NCBI GenBank assembly: GCA_964432275.1 | Contig: CAYSMH010000002.1 | Coordinates: 9,418-73,417, forward strand | Source: an uncultured Candidatus Saccharibacteria bacterium | GTDB lineage: Bacteria > Patescibacteriota > Minisyncoccia > Phycocordibacterales > UBA9973 | DNA: 64,000 nucleotides | Direction of reading: 5' to 3' | Shown: in pieces, positions 3,394-41,259 of the stretch | Position numbering within the stretch: the stretch's first letter is position 1 | How the letters are laid out: each line of letters starts with the position of its first letter | The notes under the pieces: generated by a model | Told to the model about the DNA's origin: nothing | Seen by the model: the letters and a program-made list of their open reading frames with translations, nothing else | Database searches by the model: none | Made by a program: the position numbers and the translations under genes

Positions 3394-5193
3394 ATGACTA
3401 AAACAAAAAGTTTTATAAAAAGATCGCTACATTTTTTCAGACCGTTCTGGAGGTATTTTATTATTACTGTATTACTAATCATTGTTGGTCAGGCTATTTC
3501 GACGTTTACTCCATACTTGTTTGGTAAAGGTGTAGATGCTGTTATTAACGGTAACGTACGTACCACATTTATTTTCCTGGTTGTTTCTTTTTTGCTTACT
3601 ATCTTACAGGCACAGATTATCCAATACATAAAAGAATACATTGATATTAAAAAACTCGATGTAAATATTGAAAAAGCACTTTCAGTTATTTCACTCAACC
3701 GCATGCTCCGGTTTTCTATTGGACAACACATCAACGAACACTCTGGGGTCAAACAAACAATTGTGAACAAAGGTCAAAATGCACTTATCGGTTTTGTAAA
3801 TACTTTGATATACGAAATCTTGCAGATCGGTATTCAAATATTGGTTACACTCACTATTTTGACACTCTTTGATTGGAGAGTCGGAGCAACGGCGTTTGCA
3901 TTTGTTTTACTCCATATCCTCATTTCCAATAGACGTAATAAGAACTTTTATCCCATTATTGACGCTGTGCGGAAAAAGAACCAAAGCCAGTCAAAGCTCC
4001 AATCTGAGCTCTTTCGAAACTCAACACTTGTAATCACAGAGGGACAAGAAGATAAAACTGTACAAGAATTTAATGAATCCTATACAAAAGTTACAAATTT
4101 TACTATTTCCACATGGATCAAATATATAAAGTCTTACTACGGTCAAAAATTTGTATTAATACTTGGTAGGTACGGGACACTCGCAATTGGTATTTATTTC
4201 ATTTTTATGGGCTATCATTCTGTGGGTATGTTTGTTACATTTTATTCATGGACAGGCTCAATTTTTGACAATATAAACAATCTCATGAACACACAACGAC
4301 GTACAATGTCGCAAATTGTTGAGATCAATAAATATTACGATCTTCTTGATATTATTCCTGATATCAACCCCAACATCGGCGGCAAAACTATTGCGGATCT
4401 AAAAGGTGAAATCCAATTCAAAGACGTAAGCTTCGCATATCCATACCGTCAGTCTGCAGAACAAATAGAAAATGAAGAAGAGTCAGAGGGTAACGAACTA
4501 GAGCATACGGTAGAGAACGTAAGCTTCACGATACCCGCCGGAGCAAAAGTAGGATTTGTAGGGGTATCTGGATCGGGCAAAAGTACTATCGTGAACCTCA
4601 TGCGTCGATACTACGACACCACAAGCGGAGAAATACTGATTGATGGTGAACCCCTCAAGGAACTCGATCTCCACTGGCTCCGTAGTCAGATCGGTAACGT
4701 AGAGCAAAAAATTGACCTCTTTGATCGAAGTATCAGAGACAACATATTGTTCGGACTTCCTGCTCATACAGAAATAAGCGATGAGAAGCTACAAAAAGCA
4801 GTCAAAGATGCATCACTGACCGACTTCGTCACCAAACTCAAAGACCACGGGCTCGACACAGTCATTGGTGAAGGTGGTATCAAGGTCTCTGGCGGAGAAC
4901 GACAACGTGTCGGTATTGCACGAGCTCTTGCAAAAGATCCGTGCATTCTGATATTTGACGAGGCGACATCAGCCCTCGACTCGATGAGTGAACACATCGT
5001 GCAGCAGTCGATAGACGAAGCACGGAAAGGAAAGACGGCGATCATCATTGCTCATCGTCTCTCTACAGTGAAAAACTGTGACAAGATCCTTGTGTTTCGT
5101 CACGGTATTCTCCTTGCGCAAGGTTCGCATGATGAACTCATCATGAGTTGCGAATACTATGCCGATCTCGTGGAGCATCAAATGGTTGCGTAA
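3394..5193 (+). CDS. ABC exporter, fused permease/ATPase (MsbA/multidrug-exporter-like)
   Basis: 599 aa; 6 predicted N-terminal TM helices; Walker A GVSGSGKST, signature VSGGERQRVGIARAL, Walker B ILIFDEATSALD. Confidence 0.85.
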   Translation: MTKTKSFIKRSLHFFRPFWRYFIITVLLIIVGQAISTFTPYLFGKGVDAVINGNVRTTFIFLVVSFLLTILQAQIIQYIKEYIDIKKLDVNIEKALSVISLNRMLRFSIGQHINEHSGVKQTIVNKGQNALIGFVNTLIYEILQIGIQILVTLTILTLFDWRVGATAFAFVLLHILISNRRNKNFYPIIDAVRKKNQSQSKLQSELFRNSTLVITEGQEDKTVQEFNESYTKVTNFTISTWIKYIKSYYGQKFVLILGRYGTLAIGIYFIFMGYHSVGMFVTFYSWTGSIFDNINNLMNTQRRTMSQIVEINKYYDLLDIIPDINPNIGGKTIADLKGEIQFKDVSFAYPYRQSAEQIENEEESEGNELEHTVENVSFTIPAGAKVGFVGVSGSGKSTIVNLMRRYYDTTSGEILIDGEPLKELDLHWLRSQIGNVEQKIDLFDRSIRDNILFGLPAHTEISDEKLQKAVKDASLTDFVTKLKDHGLDTVIGEGGIKVSGGERQRVGIARALAKDPCILIFDEATSALDSMSEHIVQQSIDEARKGKTAIIIAHRLSTVKNCDKILVFRHGILLAQGSHDELIMSCEYYADLVEHQMVA

Positions 5194-9667: not shown

Positions 9668-10740
9668 TCACGCTTAACGTCATCAAAATTTTCTTACCCA
9701 CTGCACTTGCCTTCCTTATAGGTATTGCGATCACGCCAAGACTCACGGATTTCATGTACAAGCATAAACTCTGGAGACGCCGACCCCGCACCGATGGAGA
9801 AACTATTACCAACACTGATTTTGCAAAACTCAACAACAGCCAAGCTGAAGTTTCAACACCGCGTGTAGGAGGTGTCATTATCTGGCTCTCAGTAACCGCA
9901 ACCATTGCACTTATGTGGATCGTATCACGAGTATTTCCTTCAGACCTTTCTACGAAGCTTGATTTTTATAGTCGTAGCCAAACTTTAGTACCTCTTGCAA
10001 GTCTTGTCTTTGGAAGCTTGCTTGGGCTCCTGGATGACTTTTTTGAAATACGAGGCAGAAGTGGGGTAACTCATGCCAATGACAAAGAGATCAAGTTTCG
10101 GTATATCAAGATTGGATTGATTTGTATCGTGGGGCTCGTTATCGGTGCATGGTTTTATGTGAAGCTTGGTATGACTGGTATTGCAATACCATTTACGGCT
10201 TCTACACTAACGCTTGGTAGTCTGTTTATTCCATTCTTCATTTTGATACTTGTTGCAGTATTTTCAGGAGGGGTGATCGATGGTATGGACGGCCTCGCAG
10301 GTGGAGTGCTTGCCATCATATTTGCTGCATATTCGATTATTGCATTTGGACAAAACCAGATCGACATTGCAGCATTTTGTGGGGTGATTGCTGGGGCAAT
10401 ATTGGCATTTTTATGGTTCAACATCCCACCTGCACGATTCTACATGGGCGAAACAGGTATGATGGGACTCCTTGTCGTACTCACTGTAGTTGCATTTCTC
10501 ACCGATACTGTGTTGTTACTCCCACTTATCGCATTTCCACTTGTTGCCTCAAGCGCATCTTCTCTTATCCAAATCTTTTCATACAAATATTGCGGCAAAC
10601 GACGCGTGTTTCGTGTAGCACCACTTCATCACCATTTCCATGCGATCGGTTGGTCTCGAGAAAAAATCGTTATGAGATACTGGGTTGTTAGTATTATTGT
10701 TGCGATCCTTGGTGTTGTAATCGCACTTATTAGTAATTAA
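9664..10740 (+). CDS. mraY: phospho-N-acetylmuramoyl-pentapeptide transferase (GT4 MraY/WecA family)
   Basis: 358 aa polytopic membrane protein; GLLDDFFEIRG (DDxxD-like), GGVIDGMDGLAGG, C-terminal APLHHHFHAIGW; context with ftsW-murG. Confidence 0.75.
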   Translation: MITLNVIKIFLPTALAFLIGIAITPRLTDFMYKHKLWRRRPRTDGETITNTDFAKLNNSQAEVSTPRVGGVIIWLSVTATIALMWIVSRVFPSDLSTKLDFYSRSQTLVPLASLVFGSLLGLLDDFFEIRGRSGVTHANDKEIKFRYIKIGLICIVGLVIGAWFYVKLGMTGIAIPFTASTLTLGSLFIPFFILILVAVFSGGVIDGMDGLAGGVLAIIFAAYSIIAFGQNQIDIAAFCGVIAGAILAFLWFNIPPARFYMGETGMMGLLVVLTVVAFLTDTVLLLPLIAFPLVASSASSLIQIFSYKYCGKRRVFRVAPLHHHFHAIGWSREKIVMRYWVVSIIVAILGVVIALISN

Positions 10741-10741
10741 T

Positions 10742-11866
10742 ATGCGAACAATTATCACAAAAGAATCTCAAAAACCCTTTGATCGATACTTTCTAGGGAT
10801 TGTGGCAGTTATCACCCTGATTGGCTTGTTTTCATTCGTATCGGCTAGTCTAGGGATTCTTGCAAAAAGTGAGAGCAAGTTTTACGGCGTATTGTTTAAC
10901 CAGTTAGTTCTTGGTCTAGTAGGCGGATCAATAGCGCTATGGGTAACTATGCACATCCCGTATGTACTCTGGCGAAAACATGCCTTTTATATATTCCTTG
11001 CGACACTTATTCTTACACTTCTTGTTTTTATTCCAAGTCTTGGATTTGAGCATGGAGGTGCACAGCGATGGATTTCTATTGGGGCACTCTCTTTTCAACC
11101 AGCAGAATTTCTCAAGCTTGGCTTTGTTATTTATTTTGCGACCTGGCTTGCGTGGACCCACAAACAAAAACAAGAACTACGATTTAAAATTCTACCCCTT
11201 ATCATTCTTTTAGGTATCGTTGCTGCTATTTTACTCAAACAGCCTGATACAAAAAGCCTGATACTGATCACAACCGCTGCATGTGCTATGTTATTTGTCT
11301 CTGGAGTTTCTTGGAAAAAGATAGGGATTATCGTTGCGGTGGGAATTATTGGAATCACTCTACTTGCATTCATTCGTCCATACGTAATGGAACGTATTGA
11401 AACATTTATTAATCCATCATCAGACCCACGCGGTTCATCCTATCAGCTACAGCAATCACTGATCGCTATCGGCTCAGGGGGTATGTTTGGGCGTGGGCTT
11501 GGACAGAGTGTACAAAAATTTGGCTACCTCCCAGAACCACAAGGTGACTCAGTGTTTGCGGTTATAGGTGAAGAGTGGGGGTTTATAGGTTCAGGTATAC
11601 TGGTTGTATTGTATATTTTCTTGGCAGTCCGAGGGCTCAAGATAGCACTGCGTGCACCAGATACCTTCGCACGGTATCTCGTTGTAGGTATCACTACGCT
11701 CATCACTGCGCAGTCATTTCTCAACATCGCATCTCTTCTTGGGCTTTTTCCACTGACCGGTGTGCCACTGGTTTTTATCTCTCACGGAGGTACATCGCTT
11801 GCGATCGCACTTGCAGCAGTCGGTATTATTCTTAATGTGTCAAGATACCAAAAAAAGGTATACTAA
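10742..11866 (+). CDS. ftsW: SEDS-family peptidoglycan glycosyltransferase FtsW/RodA
   Basis: 374 aa; ~10 TM helices; conserved QPAEFLKLGFVIYFATWL and C-terminal SHGGTSLAIA motifs. Confidence 0.85.
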   Translation: MRTIITKESQKPFDRYFLGIVAVITLIGLFSFVSASLGILAKSESKFYGVLFNQLVLGLVGGSIALWVTMHIPYVLWRKHAFYIFLATLILTLLVFIPSLGFEHGGAQRWISIGALSFQPAEFLKLGFVIYFATWLAWTHKQKQELRFKILPLIILLGIVAAILLKQPDTKSLILITTAACAMLFVSGVSWKKIGIIVAVGIIGITLLAFIRPYVMERIETFINPSSDPRGSSYQLQQSLIAIGSGGMFGRGLGQSVQKFGYLPEPQGDSVFAVIGEEWGFIGSGILVVLYIFLAVRGLKIALRAPDTFARYLVVGITTLITAQSFLNIASLLGLFPLTGVPLVFISHGGTSLAIALAAVGIILNVSRYQKKVY

Positions 11867-35673: not shown

Positions 35674-36540
35674 TTATTTATGCTCGCTCTTAATCTTGCC
35701 TCCCAATGTACGCAGCTCATCTAGTGCCATGGTTGCTTCTTCTTTGTTGGGAGCTTTGCCATGCCATTCAAACTTTCGTTCAAACTCACGGACGCCGCGA
35801 CCTGGGATCGTGCGCGCAATGATGACTGATGGCTTTTCGAACACTGCTTTTGCTTTGTTCACCGCATTGATCACCGCCTCGATGTTGTTGCCATCTATTT
35901 CTTGGACATGCCAGTTGAACGCTTCCCATTTCTCGGTGAGACTGTCGAGCGGCATGATGTCTTCGGTATAGCCGTCAATCTGTATGTTGTTGCGATCCAC
36001 TATTGCGATCACGTTGCGTAGCTTTTCTTTGCCAGCAAGCATGATAGCCTCCCAGTTGTTGCCTTCGTTGAGTTCACCGTCTCCGAGTAAGCAATAAAAA
36101 TATTTGGACGATGTAACCCCAAAGTCCATGCGATCTGCAATCGCCATGCCCACAGCCTGCGAAAGTCCTGAGCCAAGCGGACCGCTCGAGTTTTCAAGCA
36201 TCGGCAAGTATTCGCGATGCGGATGCCCTTGCAAGCGCGAACCAAACTTGCGCAGTGTTTGCAATTCTTCTAGTGGGAAATACCCTGCATGCGCCATAGT
36301 CGCATAGAGCACTGGGTTGATATGGCCATTTGAGAGTACTAATCTGTCGCGATCTGCCCATGCTGGATCTTCGGGTTTGTGTCGCATGATATCAAAGTAC
36401 AGTGCAGTGAACACATCGGCCATACCGAGTGGTCCCGCAGTGTGTCCACTTCCCGCTTCAAGCAACATCGAGATGATTGATTGTCGTATCTCGTTTGCCT
36501 TGATCTCTAATTCTCTAATGGTGAAGTCGCCTGATGACAT
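35674..36540 (-). CDS. tkt: transketolase, N-terminal (TPP-binding) subunit of split enzyme
   Basis: GSGHTAGPLGMADVFTALYF, GHINPVLYA, CLLGDGELNEGNNWEA (TPP GDG motif). Confidence 0.85.
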   Translation of the reverse strand: MSSGDFTIRELEIKANEIRQSIISMLLEAGSGHTAGPLGMADVFTALYFDIMRHKPEDPAWADRDRLVLSNGHINPVLYATMAHAGYFPLEELQTLRKFGSRLQGHPHREYLPMLENSSGPLGSGLSQAVGMAIADRMDFGVTSSKYFYCLLGDGELNEGNNWEAIMLAGKEKLRNVIAIVDRNNIQIDGYTEDIMPLDSLTEKWEAFNWHVQEIDGNNIEAVINAVNKAKAVFEKPSVIIARTIPGRGVREFERKFEWHGKAPNKEEATMALDELRTLGGKIKSEHK

Positions 36541-37220
36541 ATAGATTTGAACTTCTGTATTGTACCGTGCAAATCATTTGATTGAAAGATAGCAGAGCCC
36601 ACAACAAGCATGTCGGCACCTGCTTGGACCAATGTCGCAGCGTTATCAAGTGATACCGCACCATCAACTGCAATATGTTTATCTGGGAAAAGTTGTCGCG
36701 CCTTTTTCACTTGCTCAATAACGCGCGGATCAAATGCTTGCTGCTGGAAGCCGACGTTTTGTATTCCCATACACTGCACGGTATTGATATATTCACTATA
36801 GGGTTGTACCAAGGCAAGATCAGTATCAACACCAACCGCTATTCCAAACGATACAGTAGAGCGCACAATCTCTGGCAAGTGTTGAAAATACGCAAGCATC
36901 TTTTCTGTATCGAGTCCTTCTGCATGGAAAATGATCTTGGATGGACCAAGCGCGATAAACGTATCGATATGTGTGAGCGGGTCCTTGATCATGAGATCAA
37001 ATTCGTAATCAATTTCTTCCCAATGCGGCAAGCCTTCTTCTTGGGTGAGAAATGCTTCGAGTACGTCTTCGTTTTTGTTGTTGAACCACCAGGTGCGGTT
37101 GGTTGCAAAGTGTCCATCCACAAAGTCGACCTGTACGGTGTGCACGGCACCATATATTTTCTCGACACCATCTTTGATGTCGTAGTAGCGCATGGGTAGT
37201 ATAGCGGGGATTATTTTCAT
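36507..37220 (-). CDS. rpe: ribulose-phosphate 3-epimerase-family protein
   Basis: VDFVDGHFATN, C-terminal AVDGAVSLDNAATLVQAGADMLVVGSAIF (RPE pattern); contains an insertion relative to canonical Rpe. Confidence 0.7.
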   Translation of the reverse strand: MKIIPAILPMRYYDIKDGVEKIYGAVHTVQVDFVDGHFATNRTWWFNNKNEDVLEAFLTQEEGLPHWEEIDYEFDLMIKDPLTHIDTFIALGPSKIIFHAEGLDTEKMLAYFQHLPEIVRSTVSFGIAVGVDTDLALVQPYSEYINTVQCMGIQNVGFQQQAFDPRVIEQVKKARQLFPDKHIAVDGAVSLDNAATLVQAGADMLVVGSAIFQSNDLHGTIQKFKSICHQATSPLEN

Positions 37221-37221
37221 A

Positions 37222-37659
37222 TTAAAACTTGCTTATTCTCCGCACATGTCGCTCTTCATTGGTAAATGCTGTCGCAAGCCATAGAGTGACTGCTTGTATA
37301 GATTCTTGGGGTGTTATAAACCGCGCACTGAGTGAGAGCATGTTGGCACCGTTATGCTCACGCGAGAGTGTGAGTATCTCTGTCGGACCTCCATAGTACA
37401 CTGCACAACGTACACCAGATACACGGTTGGCACACATTGCCTCACCTTGACCTGAACCACCAAACACTATACCCATACTCTCTATATCACTAGCCACGGC
37501 TTGCGCGCACGGCAACACATAGTCTGGATAATCATCCCCTTCGACAAGCTCATTTGCACCATGATCCACGACTTCCACACCTTCTTGCGCAAGCAAGAAT
37601 TCTTTTACCGCTTCTTTGTGTGCATATCCTGCGTGATCGGTAGCGAGATGAATGATCAT
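37222..37659 (-). CDS. rpiB: ribose-5-phosphate isomerase B (RpiB/LacAB family)
   Basis: MIIHLATDHAGYAHKEAVKEFL...DYPDYVLPCAQAV...GIVFGGSGQGEAMCANRVSGVRCAV...HNGANMLSLSARF. Confidence 0.85.
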   Translation of the reverse strand: MIIHLATDHAGYAHKEAVKEFLLAQEGVEVVDHGANELVEGDDYPDYVLPCAQAVASDIESMGIVFGGSGQGEAMCANRVSGVRCAVYYGGPTEILTLSREHNGANMLSLSARFITPQESIQAVTLWLATAFTNEERHVRRISKF

Positions 37660-37660
37660 A

Positions 37661-38308
37661 TTATCGGATAGGTACAGTCACGCGCAACTCTACTGTCTCG
37701 TTTGCAAATGTCTGGTCGATACCAAACTGTTTCAGATCAAGAGTAAATGTCGCTGCAAGCTCGTTTGCACTACGAGTCACCGGGAATGAAACTGCCTTGG
37801 TCACACCGTGGATCGTGAAGTTGCCCGAGAGAAATGCTGCCTCACAGATATCTGCAGGACCACATGAGGAGAGGTCTGCCATTGTGTTGTCCTTGGTCAC
37901 AACAAATGTTGCAGTTGGATACTTTGCGGTATCAAAGAAGTCATCTGTTTTCAAATGCTCAGTCACTTTTTCAGTATCAGTCGAGAGGCTGTTTACATTG
38001 ACCACTATCTTGCCGCTGATTGCACCCTTGGCATCTAGCGCAAGGCTGGAGTTCACTACAGCAAATGATCCGACATGTTTCTTGCCAGGACCAAAGCCGG
38101 TGAACCCGACAGTAACCTTGCTGTTGTCGACTTGCTTGCCTGCACTACTGACAGGAGTCGTAGGTGTAGGTGTTGTACTATCCCCTGTTGCAGGTGTTTC
38201 CTCAGTAATAGTAGCTGCTGGGGTTGCAGCGTCAGGCTGTGTCTGGATCTTTTGCCATCCGAAATAGCCGAGTACTGCGATAATAACGATAAGTAAAAAT
38301 GTTTTCAT
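37661..38308 (-). CDS. YceI-like domain secreted protein
   Basis: Signal/TM N-terminus, Thr/Pro-rich linker, then ...HLKTDDFFDTAKYPTATFVV...GNFTIHGVTKAVSFPV matching the YceI fold signature. Confidence 0.75.
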   Translation of the reverse strand: MKTFLLIVIIAVLGYFGWQKIQTQPDAATPAATITEETPATGDSTTPTPTTPVSSAGKQVDNSKVTVGFTGFGPGKKHVGSFAVVNSSLALDAKGAISGKIVVNVNSLSTDTEKVTEHLKTDDFFDTAKYPTATFVVTKDNTMADLSSCGPADICEAAFLSGNFTIHGVTKAVSFPVTRSANELAATFTLDLKQFGIDQTFANETVELRVTVPIR

Positions 38309-38319
38309 AAAAATAGTAT

Positions 38320-38400
38320 ACCTTATTTAGTAATAGTCTTCCCTGTCTTAATCACATGATCAACGAGCGTATACGTATATATCATTTCGTTATCATACCA
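38320..38400 (-). pseudogene. duplicated fragment of gap 3-prime end (encodes WYDNEMIYTYTLVDHVIKTGKTITK*)
   Basis: ~80% nt identity to 38713-38790, including an identical 26-mer gtcttccctgtcttaatcacatgatc; lies immediately downstream of the MazG-like gene. Confidence 0.55.
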
Positions 38401-38402
38401 TG

Positions 38403-38708
38403 TTACTGGTATGACCCTTTTAGTATAATTTTCTGATCAAATCCTCCTCGTTCTTCCTTTTTCTTCAATCGAATCGCTTCGACACCTGAGTATTCAGGAA
38501 GTTGTTTAAGGGCTTCAATCACTTCTACAATATCTGCCAATTCTTCCAAATCACCAGCTTCAGCAAATTCCTTAATTTCTTCACCAAGTTTTTTTATGAG
38601 CTCAGTTTTATATTCCTCTGGAGAAGCAAGTCGCTTTTCGTAAGAAATATTCTTTGCATCTAGAATTTCTGGAATTTTATCTCTGACTAATTTGTTGTAG
38701 TTTTCCAT
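38403..38708 (-). CDS. MazG-like nucleoside triphosphate pyrophosphohydrolase domain protein (101 aa)
   Basis: NYNKLVRDKIPEIL...EFAEAGDLEELADIVEVIEAL...KKKEERGGFDQKIIL, typical of short MazG/PRA-PH-like house-cleaning NTPases. Confidence 0.65.
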   Translation of the reverse strand: MENYNKLVRDKIPEILDAKNISYEKRLASPEEYKTELIKKLGEEIKEFAEAGDLEELADIVEVIEALKQLPEYSGVEAIRLKKKEERGGFDQKIILKGSYQ

Positions 38709-38712
38709 AAAA

Positions 38713-39738
38713 TTATTTTATCGTCTTCCCTGTCTTAATCACATGATCTACCAACGTATACGTATACCCCATTTCATTGTCGTACCACCCCATGACTTTC
38801 ACGAGGTTGCCGCCGACGACGCGAGTCATTTCGAGATCAGCGATCGATGCATGTGAGTTACCGAGAATATCGCTCGAGACGAGTGGTTCATTGGTCACTG
38901 CAAATATCCCTTTCCAACGGTCAGTCATTGACGCCTTGGTCAGTATGTCGTTGACCTCTGCTGCAGTCGTATCCTTTTTAGAAATAAATGTCACGTCGAC
39001 AATCGAGCCCGCAGGTACTGGTACTCGGATAGAAATACCATCGAACTTGTCAGTGAGCTCAGGGTACGCCTTGGTCACTGCGATCGCAGCTCCGGTAGAT
39101 GACGGCACGATGTTTTGTGCAGCGGCGCGGCCTTCACGCAAGTCTTTCTTGCTTGGGCCATCGACGAGTGACTGTGATGCAGTGTAGCCGTGGACTGTGT
39201 TGAGGATCGCCTTTTCGATACCAAGTGCGTCGTGGAGGATACCGATCAGTGGAGATGCAGCGTTGGTGGTACAGGATGCATTACTCGTGATATCGCAGGT
39301 ACCAAATTTCTCTTCGTTGACACCGAGCAGTATCGTCTCACCTGGAAATGACCCGTCACCTTTGCTTGGTGCAGAGATCACGACCTTTTTTGCACCTTGG
39401 TCGAGATGGAACTTCGCCTTTTCGTATGCAGTAAAGAGACCGGTGGATTCGACGACGACATCAATACCGAGCTCGCGCCATGGCAACTTGGTTGTGTCTT
39501 TTTCAGAGATGAACTTCACGGTCTTGCCATCGATCACCAGATCGGTGCCACTGACTTCTACCTTGTGTCCCCACTTCCTATACACTGTGTCGTATCGCAA
39601 GAGATATGCGAGACTTTCGATCGAACCGAGGTCGTTGACCGCGACGATCTCGATCTCGGGGCGCTCCCATGCGATCTTGAGAAATGCTCGACCAATGCGT
39701 CCGAAACCGTTGATAGCTACCTTGATTGTTTTATCCAT
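38713..39738 (-). CDS. gap: glyceraldehyde-3-phosphate dehydrogenase
   Basis: MDKTIKVAINGFGRIGR (NAD-binding), ASCTTNA active-site Cys region, C-terminal WYDNEMGYT. Confidence 0.9.
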   Translation of the reverse strand: MDKTIKVAINGFGRIGRAFLKIAWERPEIEIVAVNDLGSIESLAYLLRYDTVYRKWGHKVEVSGTDLVIDGKTVKFISEKDTTKLPWRELGIDVVVESTGLFTAYEKAKFHLDQGAKKVVISAPSKGDGSFPGETILLGVNEEKFGTCDITSNASCTTNAASPLIGILHDALGIEKAILNTVHGYTASQSLVDGPSKKDLREGRAAAQNIVPSSTGAAIAVTKAYPELTDKFDGISIRVPVPAGSIVDVTFISKKDTTAAEVNDILTKASMTDRWKGIFAVTNEPLVSSDILGNSHASIADLEMTRVVGGNLVKVMGWYDNEMGYTYTLVDHVIKTGKTIK

Positions 39739-39828: not shown

Positions 39829-41259
39829 TTAAATCATTTCTTTGAGTATTTGCAAGGTGAGCGCTGGGTTTGCTGCACCTTTGGTTGCTTTCATCACCTG
39901 CCCTACCAGACCTTGGAGCGCGGCTTCCTTTCCAGACTTATAGTCTGCAACTATTTTTTCGTTGTCTTTGATGACTTGTTCGATGATAGGTTTCAGGTCG
40001 TCCGCGTTGTTTTGCTGAAGAAGGCCTTTATCTTCTGCGATTTTTCTTGGTGATGTTTGTCTATCTGCAGGAAGTCTAGATTCTTCAGAAAGAATAACCA
40101 TGATATCTTTTGCACCACGAGAAGAGATCTCGTTTTTTGCAATCAAGTTAATGAGTTCTGCAAAATGCTTTTCATCTGGATAAAATAGCATCTGATCTTT
40201 TTTCATAAGAGATAAATAATCAGTAAGCATGTAGTTTGCAAGCAATTGAGCTGAAGACTTGTCTTCCAAAAGTGATGCTGCTTTTTTAAAATAATCCCCA
40301 CCAGCCTCATCCACCACAAACTGTTCAGCATCTTCAGATTTTATACTGTAATCTTTTGCAAATATTTCTCGCTTCTCCCATGGCAACTCTGGCAAATCTT
40401 TTTTCATTACATCGAGATCAAATGCGCTATGCAGCTGCATTTTTGGCAGATCTGGGTCTGGGAAGTAGCGATAGTCATTTGCATTTTCTTTGGAGCGCTG
40501 ACTAAAGGTGGTTTGTTTGTTCTCGTCCCATCCGCGCGTCTCTTGGACGATCTCATCTTGTCGTCCTGCTTCGTAGAGCGCCTGCATGCGTGCGAGCTCA
40601 TACTCGATCGCTTTTTCTACTGACTTAAATGAGTTGAGATTTTTTACTTCTACTTTCGTTCCAAACTTCTCAGGATCATCGCTCAGTGAGATATTGGGCT
40701 CGACACGCATCTCACCCTTTTCAAGGTTGGCTTCGGACACACCAAGCGTACGCAGCAGTAGCTGCAACTCTTTTGCAAAATCTGCAGCATCCTTTGCAGA
40801 GTGAATGACTGGCTCAGTGACAAGCTCCATCAGTGGCACCCCTGCGCGGTTGTAGTCGACAAGTGTGAAGTCTCCTCTATCATGTTTGGACAGTCCAGTG
40901 TCTTCTTCGAGGTGTACACGAGTAATTTTGAAACCATTGAGCGCTCCACCTGAAACGATCGGGTACTTGTATTGAGAGATCTGATAGCCTTTGGGAATAT
41001 CAGGATAAAAGTAGTTTTTGCGGTCAAACTCTGAGAAGTCTGCAATCGTAGAGCCGAGTGCAAGCCCAACCTGGATCACCTTTTTGATCGCGTCATTGTT
41101 TGCCACAGGTAGGGTACCCGGGTGTGCCATACATATAGGACAAATATTTACATTTGGTCGAGTCTCATCGGGGTCGTTTTTGCACCCGCAAAACATCTTG
41201 CTCTGGGTTGCAAGCTCAGCGTGTATTTCCAAGCCAATAACGGGATAGTACGTCTTCAT
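39829..41259 (-). CDS. gatB: aspartyl/glutamyl-tRNA(Asn/Gln) amidotransferase subunit B
   Basis: MKTYYPVIGLEIHAELATQSKMFCGCKNDP...NICPICMAHPGTLPV (GatB N-terminus), C-terminal YqeY-like tail. Confidence 0.9.
   Translation of the reverse strand: MKTYYPVIGLEIHAELATQSKMFCGCKNDPDETRPNVNICPICMAHPGTLPVANNDAIKKVIQVGLALGSTIADFSEFDRKNYFYPDIPKGYQISQYKYPIVSGGALNGFKITRVHLEEDTGLSKHDRGDFTLVDYNRAGVPLMELVTEPVIHSAKDAADFAKELQLLLRTLGVSEANLEKGEMRVEPNISLSDDPEKFGTKVEVKNLNSFKSVEKAIEYELARMQALYEAGRQDEIVQETRGWDENKQTTFSQRSKENANDYRYFPDPDLPKMQLHSAFDLDVMKKDLPELPWEKREIFAKDYSIKSEDAEQFVVDEAGGDYFKKAASLLEDKSSAQLLANYMLTDYLSLMKKDQMLFYPDEKHFAELINLIAKNEISSRGAKDIMVILSEESRLPADRQTSPRKIAEDKGLLQQNNADDLKPIIEQVIKDNEKIVADYKSGKEAALQGLVGQVMKATKGAANPALTLQILKEMI

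Follow-up and report, generated by a model that had tools for sequence, protein, structure and literature searches.

Two copies of the 3′ terminus of gap flank a single 306-nt open reading frame (ORF) in the window (the whole 64-kb stretch of DNA that was analyzed), and these termini probably represent an attL/attR-type pair, with the interval between gap and rpiB serving as a site of recurrent integration. The proposed attachment site spans ~75 bp at the end of gap, beginning with the Trp318 codon of the conserved WYDNEMGY motif and running through the stop codon. On this reading, a feature previously regarded as a decaying duplication is reclassified as an attachment-site pair.

Organization of the gap locus

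All genes of this region are encoded on the minus strand; their order is gatB, gap, a 101-aa ORF, yceI, rpiB, rpe, and the N-terminal half of a transketolase gene. The features described below are as follows (window coordinates).

39829–41259, minus strand: gatB, the upstream neighbor of gap
38713–39738, minus strand: gap, type I glyceraldehyde-3-phosphate dehydrogenase (GAPDH), 341 aa, intact (Pfam Gp_dh_N and Gp_dh_C; TIGR01534)
38713–38787, minus strand: copy 1, attL-like, the functional gap terminus from Trp318 to the stop codon (repeat alignment; comparison with relatives)
38723–38748 and 38336–38361, minus strand: 26-nt block GATCATGTGATTAAGACAGGGAAGAC, exact in both copies (read from the sequence)
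38403–38708, minus strand: 101-aa cargo ORF, 306 nt, of the COG4997-type 'house-cleaning NTP pyrophosphatase, MazG superfamily' group
38383–38403, minus strand: putative element-type arm (P arm) of copy 2, ACATGGTATGATAACGAAATG (exact 21-mer match to a prophage attR)
38323–38400, minus strand: copy 2, attR-like, a displaced gap terminus of 25 codons plus stop, untranslated (repeat alignment; relatives)
37661–38308, minus strand: yceI-family gene (Pfam YceI, E = 5e-28)

The gap gene stays intact despite the insertion, and its 341-aa product scores 378.7 bits against TIGR01534, above the cutoff of 367.2. The cargo ORF starts 4 nt past the gap stop codon, copy 2 begins 2 nt past the stop codon of the cargo ORF, and yceI follows 14 nt beyond copy 2. 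The P arm overlaps the final base of the cargo ORF stop codon. Because it starts only 4 nt after the gap stop codon, the cargo ORF is probably co-transcribed and translationally coupled with gap and would be expressed from the gap signals. In agreement with a preliminary description of this DNA, the gap terminus is repeated downstream of the 101-aa gene. Positions 38333–38400 align with 38720–38787 over 68 nt, ungapped, at 85% identity (repeat search and alignment), and the 94-nt spacer between the cargo ORF and yceI gives a local alignment score of 48 against gap, compared with 9.6 ± 1.2 for 1000 shuffles (z = 31). Copy 2, which translates as WYDNEMIYTYTLVDHVIKTGKTITK followed by a stop, has one additional codon (ACT) relative to copy 1. 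When the 64-kb window was scanned for direct repeats (≥40 nt, within 6 kb), this pair was the only one detected. A variant of the population that lacks the insert was also sought; the one contig recovered, a Logan contig of run SRR12762275 that corresponds to window positions 37414–39148, has base-for-base the same arrangement. The possibility that translation of the cargo ORF continues into copy 2 by a frameshift was discarded, as the frames differ and the internal ATG is unconserved among the displaced copies.

One explanation for copy 2 is that it is kept because it serves yceI, be it as a terminator, a promoter, a region for ribosome loading, or a small RNA, with the resemblance to gap being secondary. 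In the ancestral arrangement, the downstream gene begins 0–15 nt after the gap stop codon, and the end of gap may therefore carry translation signals for that gene. Codons 325–341 of the displaced copies are also well conserved. However, neither a terminator nor a promoter match is present in the repeat on the coding (minus) strand, and the RNA folds no better than shuffled sequences (z = 0.59). In addition, the displaced copies are more decayed the farther they lie from gap, and most cargo is not followed by one. A retained function of this kind is considered extremely improbable.

The cargo ORF has a GC content of about 34%, and that of the neighboring genes is about 50%. Its family is very large (7648 matches, many of which are at least 80% identical) and highly conserved. 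Its earlier designation as MazG-like is plausible, if weakly supported. In favor of this label, the acidic residues E43, E44, E47, E56, D59, and E62 are invariant in 27 homologs and match the conserved acidic metal-binding residues (ExxE ... ExxD), although the spacing between the two acidic motifs is shorter than in canonical MazG. The JGI database names the homologs 'house-cleaning noncanonical NTP pyrophosphatase (MazG superfamily)', and these COG-type names, together with the NCBI names, are the sole support for pyrophosphohydrolase activity. On the other hand, Pfam and NCBIfam searches return no family at E ≤ 0.001, with Pfam PRA-PH falling short of its cutoff of 21.3 bits at a score of 16.4 (E = 0.012). 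Searches of PHROGs and of PDB sequences likewise yield nothing above threshold, and a fold search did not establish a MazG identity. On viral contigs (IMG/VR), the cargo ORF has one distant match (43% identical) and no close relative.

For comparison, a one-genome-per-species scan provided 80 Patescibacteria loci with GAPDH identities of 82–95% to the window; these genomes are labeled Paceibacteria, Nomurabacteria, or, through automated naming, Saccharibacteria. In the closest relative (L010, 95% GAPDH identity), gap is followed directly by yceI, with a single terminus and no insert. The same organization, with one terminus and no MazG-like ORF, is observed in L014, L032, L025, and L056. These empty sites bear out the earlier proposal that a small gene was inserted at the gap end. 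The gap–yceI adjacency is found in L010, L014, L017, L025, L032, L045, and L056, and yceI is, judging from this comparison, the original downstream neighbor of gap in the clade. The terminus of the empty sites ends in ...ACT ATT ACT/ATC/AAC CAA/AAA TAA and is one codon longer, as in copy 2 of the window. The MazG-like ORF itself is located 3–7 nt past gap in many lineages (L001–L009, L059, L062, L094).

Divergence and hybrid structure of the two termini

The two copies differ at 11 nucleotides across 8 codons. Seven of these 8 codons are synonymous, and only one (GGG to ATA) is non-synonymous. When neutral decay of one copy was simulated, 4.6–8.6 non-synonymous codons were expected. With at least 80% of the changes in the free copy, the probability of observing one or fewer is <1e-4; with half of them there, it is 0.02. 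Because nearly all of the differences are synonymous, the copies did not decay in place; rather, the termini diverged while both were coding, in different lineages, and were later joined.

This pattern bears directly on the origin previously assigned to the repeat, a ~75-bp duplication of the target site (or a local duplication in tandem) after which the downstream copy decayed. Such an event would account for the direct repeats that flank the insert, and the copies of one relative (L048) match over about 63 nt at 100% identity. In the window, however, the single non-synonymous codon is at odds with decay, and the additional codon of copy 2 is common to the empty-site relatives and not to copy 1. 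Repeat and Pfam searches detected neither inverted repeats at the insert ends nor a transposase, and copy 2 carries an arm that is foreign to the target. Duplication with subsequent decay is thus regarded as highly improbable.

The 3′ part of copy 2 contains the additional codon and the ACT ATT ACT AAA TAA ending seen in the empty-site relatives, and it is contiguous with yceI. This segment looks like the old native gap terminus. Copy 2 as a whole is best read as a hybrid, in which the first 21 nt (ACA plus the codons for W318–M323) are non-native and the 3′ part is native-like. From the earlier idea that the old terminus was left behind as a decaying remnant, the displaced native 3′ part is retained, whereas the decay is contradicted by the synonymous differences, and the first 21 nt correspond to a phage-type arm. 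The 3′ part of copy 1, in turn, reads ACG ATA AAA TAA, followed by TTTT ATG GAA AAC, and matches the termini that precede the MazG-like ORF in L001, L003, L007, and L092. Copy 1 looks native in its 5′ part and imported in its 3′ part. At informative sites, the window sides with L010 over L001 by 128:46 up to gap column 899, compared with 9:11 in the last 160 columns (Fisher p = 0.017). A sliding-window identity analysis of gap for a foreign tract reveals no breakpoint, and the shift in affinity is confined to the last ~35–160 nt. The assignment of the halves of both copies rests on few sites (p about 0.02), and the identity of the arm beyond ACA involves only three synonymous positions. The hybrid-junction pattern of attachment sites (attL = B-O-P′, attR = P-O-B′) is thus found at the window, though on few sites, and the 26-nt block at 38723–38748 is a candidate for the crossover region.

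Phage attachment sites and recurrent insertion at the gap terminus

A search of IMG/VR for the terminus motif identified five stretches. In the 40.5-kb contig 3300014208_001117, gap is followed by ~38 kb of phage genes, an integrase, a 62-aa HTH ORF, a gap-terminus copy, and rpiB. The gene content includes an AAA_24 ATPase, a PD-(D/E)XK nuclease, a DnaC-like loader, a 2069-aa structural protein, and a peptidoglycan-binding-domain protein. Its key features are as follows.

L139, 255–1292: prophage gap, a complete gene that carries attL
L137, 8831–10003: prophage integrase (Phage_integrase, PF00589, E = 4e-21)
L137, 10352–10444: prophage gap-terminus copy with the Trp318 boundary, between the HTH ORF and rpiB

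This contig holds a prophage integrated at the 3′ terminus of gap in a distantly related member of the Patescibacteria, with attL in gap. The 21-mer that begins copy 2 of the window, ACATGGTATGATAACGAAATG, is exactly that of the prophage attR (L137 10373–10393), and it occurs nowhere else in the window or among the 148 loci searched. The GAPDHs of the window and of the prophage host share 58% identity, and the phage hosts overall range from 58 to 75%. A related phage contig (L141), the integrase of which is 65% identical, has no gap gene and shows the order integrase, 79-aa ORF, TGACA-TGG-TAC-AGC-AAT-GAA...TAG, hairpin, and early genes. L141 represents the unintegrated attP form of this phage family. 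Three further viral contigs start with gap and continue into early genes of the type seen in the prophage and in L141 (attL sides). In addition, the arms of L048 and L092 have AGC/AGT at codon 320 in common with the L141 attP.

In the phages, the replacement terminus is followed by a terminator and not by a coupled ORF. An attP or free form that carries the MazG-like gene was not found in the contigs searched, and none of the small cargo ORFs of the cassettes has a homolog on phage contigs. Between the two copies of the window, the 101-aa ORF is the sole gene, with no integrase, excisionase, or phage gene, and a homolog of the prophage integrase is absent from the 64-kb window and from the 4 kb around gap in the 80 relatives. 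Four matches to a degenerate arm pattern (L143–L146) were set aside as they correspond to 'TWYDNE'/'TWYNNE' inside unrelated phage proteins, and IMG/VR scans for CGT-type and AAT-AAC-type arms returned chance matches only. Within the literature searched, no paper was found that links gap to a phage attachment site in Patescibacteria.

Among 76 species, the distance between gap and rpiB varies from 0 to 3345 nt, with the two genes abutting in 11. By Pfam, the intervening cargo includes YceI, a PemK toxin, and an IS30-type transposase; other cargo comprises MazG-like ORFs, membrane proteins, many orphans, and, by eye, HD-, Nudix-, and Fic-like proteins. By this comparison, the gap–rpiB junction is a major site of gene-content variation in the clade and is therefore a natural place to seek accessory functions. 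In at least 12 other relatives, a second gap terminus that starts at the Trp318 codon encloses unrelated small cargo. These copies are listed below; L091–L093 are metagenome contigs.

L020, L037, L050, L054, L057, L070, L083, L087, L011, L001, and L092/L091: second copies from nhmmer model position 16–19 (Trp318)
L048: second copy, aligning from profile position 27
L093: further copy, preceded by TCC and not ACA

Between the copies, ORFs of 57, 81, 93, 115, 119, and 170 aa are observed, as well as inserts of 1.35 kb and 2.3 kb. An excess of cargo ORFs start with ATG-GAA. The preliminary description had treated the window as the footprint of a single-gene insertion, and had named a duplicated arrangement without a MazG gene in related genomes as evidence to the contrary. 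One small ORF does lie between the copies, but the event is not a one-off, as the Trp318 boundary recurs and the gap–MazG adjacency is widespread. Duplicated arrangements without a MazG gene do exist, but always with other cargo between the copies, which generalizes the insertion reading. L050 and L057 possess a third terminus copy that is farther from gap and more decayed than the second, and in L092 an insert and a further terminus separate gap from the MazG-like ORF. The same boundary around different cargo, together with these decayed outer copies, indicates that the insertions were repeated, polar, and always at the functional terminus.

The displaced copies show a two-part structure similar to that of copy 2. 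Their non-synonymous changes are concentrated in codons 318–324, and several are common to genomes with different cargo, such as GAC to CGT in L070, L054, L037, and L050, and GAY to AAT plus AAC in L083, L020, and L011. Codons 325–341, in contrast, are coding-like, and their lineage-specific states match the gap gene of the same genome. Among 15 displaced copies and att sites, about 8 have ACA immediately before Trp318, compared with none of the 84 functional gap termini, where GGN or GCN is found instead. Across the full 72 nt, the displaced copies do not group as a separate lineage: the mean identity among second copies is no higher than that among first copies, and shared derived states are restricted to the 5′ arm.

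The recurrence of the boundary is also relevant to a single, phage-independent event of homology-facilitated illegitimate recombination, in which gap anchored a foreign gap 3′ end with its MazG-like gene and a chance join took place immediately before the Trp318 codon. This event predicts the exact footprint seen in the window (an intact gene, cargo, and a displaced native terminus), and the low GC content of the cargo ORF would agree with it. Nevertheless, the same boundary is found at more than 12 loci around different cargo, and all 21 nt of the arm match the prophage attR exactly, even in the ACA that does not derive from gap. A chance join of this type is considered very unlikely.

A further possibility is that terminus–MazG–terminus DNA was imported from a relative through RecA-dependent crossovers in gap/copy 1 and in copy 2/yceI, in the manner of a minimal mobile element. 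No integrase would then have acted in the lineage of the window, and the phage-type arm would stem from an older event in the donor. Several observations are in line with this proposal: the gap–rpiB interval is hypervariable between conserved flanks, the gap–MazG adjacency with its TAA-TTTT-ATG-GAA junction is found across the clade, no integrase is nearby, and the identical core, at 26 nt, is close in length to a minimal recombination segment. In L050 and L070, moreover, the cargo is 81% identical compared with 68% for the gap genes. However, homologous import leaves unexplained how each different cargo was first bracketed at the Trp318 boundary, and no foreign tract is detectable in gap upstream of the last ~35 nt. 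It is also compatible with an att-site origin as a means of secondary spread rather than an alternative to it. As an explanation for the window in its own right, import is judged rather unlikely.

Proposed mechanism and relation to known systems

In the favored att-site model, a Patescibacteria temperate phage family encodes a tyrosine integrase with an adjoining attP that mimics the end of gap. Upon integration, the element would bring a replacement gap terminus, and GAPDH would therefore remain intact. The old terminus would be displaced downstream, prefixed by the element's own arm (ACA-TGG-TAT...). In the window, copy 1 would act as attL and copy 2 as attR, with the one 306-nt ORF between them. 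The cassette of the window would have arrived by integrase-mediated recombination, with the integrase acting in trans or later lost. Some features do not fit a plain prophage scar: the insert consists of one ORF that comes to within 4 and 2 nt of the junctions, it lacks an integrase and any phage gene, and the ORF has no close viral relative. This integrase-less 306-nt cargo may have been inserted by an integrase provided in trans, may be what is left of a decayed larger element, or may have come by homologous recombination from a relative. In L092, where the order is gap, ~750 nt (X), terminus, and MazG-like ORF, the junction 'AAA TAA TTTT ATG GAA AAC' belongs to the host (B′) side of an attR, and the pairing of this terminus with the MazG-like ORF can therefore also be a resident arrangement.

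The temperate phages of Patescibacteria (Candidate Phyla Radiation) and their integration sites are poorly known, and the present result gives a concrete attB/attP pair and an integrase family for this phylum. A second WYDNEMGY-coding terminus preceded by ACA could serve as a sequence marker for integrated elements or their remnants in these small genomes. The integrase and the gap site could, moreover, become a genetic tool for organisms that have none.

Several known systems share features with this locus. Islets at tRNA and tmRNA sites and degraded prophages likewise leave direct repeats of a gene 3′ end, reuse of the site pushes older remnants outward, and integrase-less remnants are common. 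Here, in contrast, the target is protein-coding, and the cargo is packed within 2–4 nt of both junctions, which is unexpected from simple random deletion. Minimal mobile elements of Neisseria are variable genes that lie between two conserved housekeeping genes and are exchanged between lineages, and they need no repeats or integrase. The gap–rpiB interval similarly holds a variable gene set between conserved housekeeping genes that is exchanged between lineages, but the insert in the window is bracketed by att-type copies with a phage-derived arm.

The resemblance to integron cassettes lies in promoterless single ORFs that are each followed by a recombination site, in serial insertion next to a fixed site with new cassettes proximal, and in the use of upstream expression signals. 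A solved relative of the cargo ORF, iMazG (PDB ID: 2q5z), is integron-borne. By analogy, an integron-like capture system in Patescibacteria can be envisaged, in which one-ORF cassettes with a ~75-bp mimic of the gap end are serially inserted at Trp318 by an integrase of the phage family supplied in trans. The newest cassette would reside next to gap, older ones would be pushed towards rpiB, and expression would depend on translational coupling to gap as a glycolytic gene with high expression. The tight packing of the cargo and the ATG-GAA starts are signatures expected of such a system, which is put forward as a speculative and unlikely scenario. The locus also differs from integrons in several respects: no intI is located at the site (the upstream gene is gatB, and no integrase is found within 4 kb of gap in 80 genomes), copy 2 is a gene-end mimic with only a short GTATAC repeat and not a folded palindrome like attC, and no free cassette circle was observed.

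Integration of phage 21 or e14 supplies a replacement 3′ end for icd. The use of icd as an integration site by these elements is documented in Escherichia coli (PMC12803456, PMC9580842). At icd and at gap alike, a tyrosine-integrase element inserts inside the 3′ end of an essential gene of central metabolism, the gene-end mimic of the element keeps the enzyme intact, and the native end is shifted to the distal junction. Differences between the two ends are mostly synonymous, and many different elements use the site. At the locus described here, the target is instead the WYDNEMGY motif of gap in Patescibacteria, a segment of about 75 bp is shared, the 'element' of the window is a single 306-nt non-phage ORF without an integrase, and serial displaced termini occur in several relatives. 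Elements that integrate at the 3′ end of housekeeping genes and provide a replacement terminus are a known phenomenon, of which the gap terminus offers a new example in a little-studied phylum.

Variable spacing and contents between gap and rpiB

Across 76 species-level relatives (L010-L089), the spacing between gap and rpiB is highly variable, ranging from 0 to 3345 nt. The two genes directly abut in 11 of these genomes, and the remaining intervals hold unrelated small genes, many of which lack any Pfam family. At one locus, L087, the two gap termini enclose a 2.3-kb insert with genes for an IS30-type transposase (HTH_38 + rve) and for a PemK/MazF-type toxin.

Window 37659-38713: gap-rpiB interval
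L087 2816-3817: IS30-type transposase
L087 4446-4832: PemK/MazF-type toxin
L071 5774, L026 5482 and L052 5484: longer genes with a MazG-like domain, also within the gap-rpiB interval
L093 87-428: region of the 113-aa ORF and displaced gap terminus

In the three relatives with longer genes, the MazG-like domain forms the C-terminal half of 190-203-aa proteins that have a hydrophobic N-terminal region. On the metagenome contig L093, a 113-aa ORF precedes the displaced gap terminus, which itself lies upstream of a MazG-like ORF; inspected by eye, this 113-aa product resembles a HepT/DUF86 toxin.

A 57-aa membrane-protein cassette found in two relatives (L050 and L070) shares 81% DNA identity, whereas the gap genes of the same genomes are only 68% identical. 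Because of this difference, the sequences suggest that the cassette moved between genomes more recently than the hosts split.

Sequence features at the gap terminus

The first ORF 3′ of gap was compared in approximately 30 loci (for example, window 38706-38708, L011 5029, L037 5023, L057 5035 and L083 5026). Of the independent cargo families whose start lies no more than 8 nt from the gap stop, roughly half open with ATG-GAA (Met-Glu). Among the 79 long ORFs of the window, Glu falls outside the eight commonest second residues. The Met-Glu excess in first post-gap ORFs could reflect a shared junction sequence or a translational-coupling requirement.

A perfect 12-nt palindrome, GTATACGTATAC, is also observed within the functional gap terminus, in codons Gly324-Thr328.

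Window 38756-38767: palindrome GTATACGTATAC

It is positioned immediately 3′ of the point matching the end of the element-type arm in the displaced terminus, and its conservation does not extend to every lineage.

Transketolase and phage loci

The transketolase of the window is present as a separate N-terminal half of 288 aa, and the first 34 nt of this gene are shared with the 3′ end of rpe.

Window 35674-36540: transketolase N-terminal half
Window 36507-37220: rpe

Relatives with the same split encode the C-terminal half in a second ORF.

In the phage host, a gene of the PF05635 family (23S rRNA intervening-sequence protein) lies between the prophage attR and rpiB. A near-identical motif, AAAGGTCGAAATTATTAACCAA, recurs in four phage contigs, in each case 3′ of the hairpin that follows the gap-terminus copy.

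L137 (prophage right end) 10506-10895: PF05635 gene
L141 (unintegrated attP form) ~4750-4790: AAAGGTCGAAATTATTAACCAA motif
L136, L135 and L138, shortly after the gap stop: AAAGGTCGAAATTATTAACCAA motif

This motif is not present in the window and may represent a phage regulatory site.
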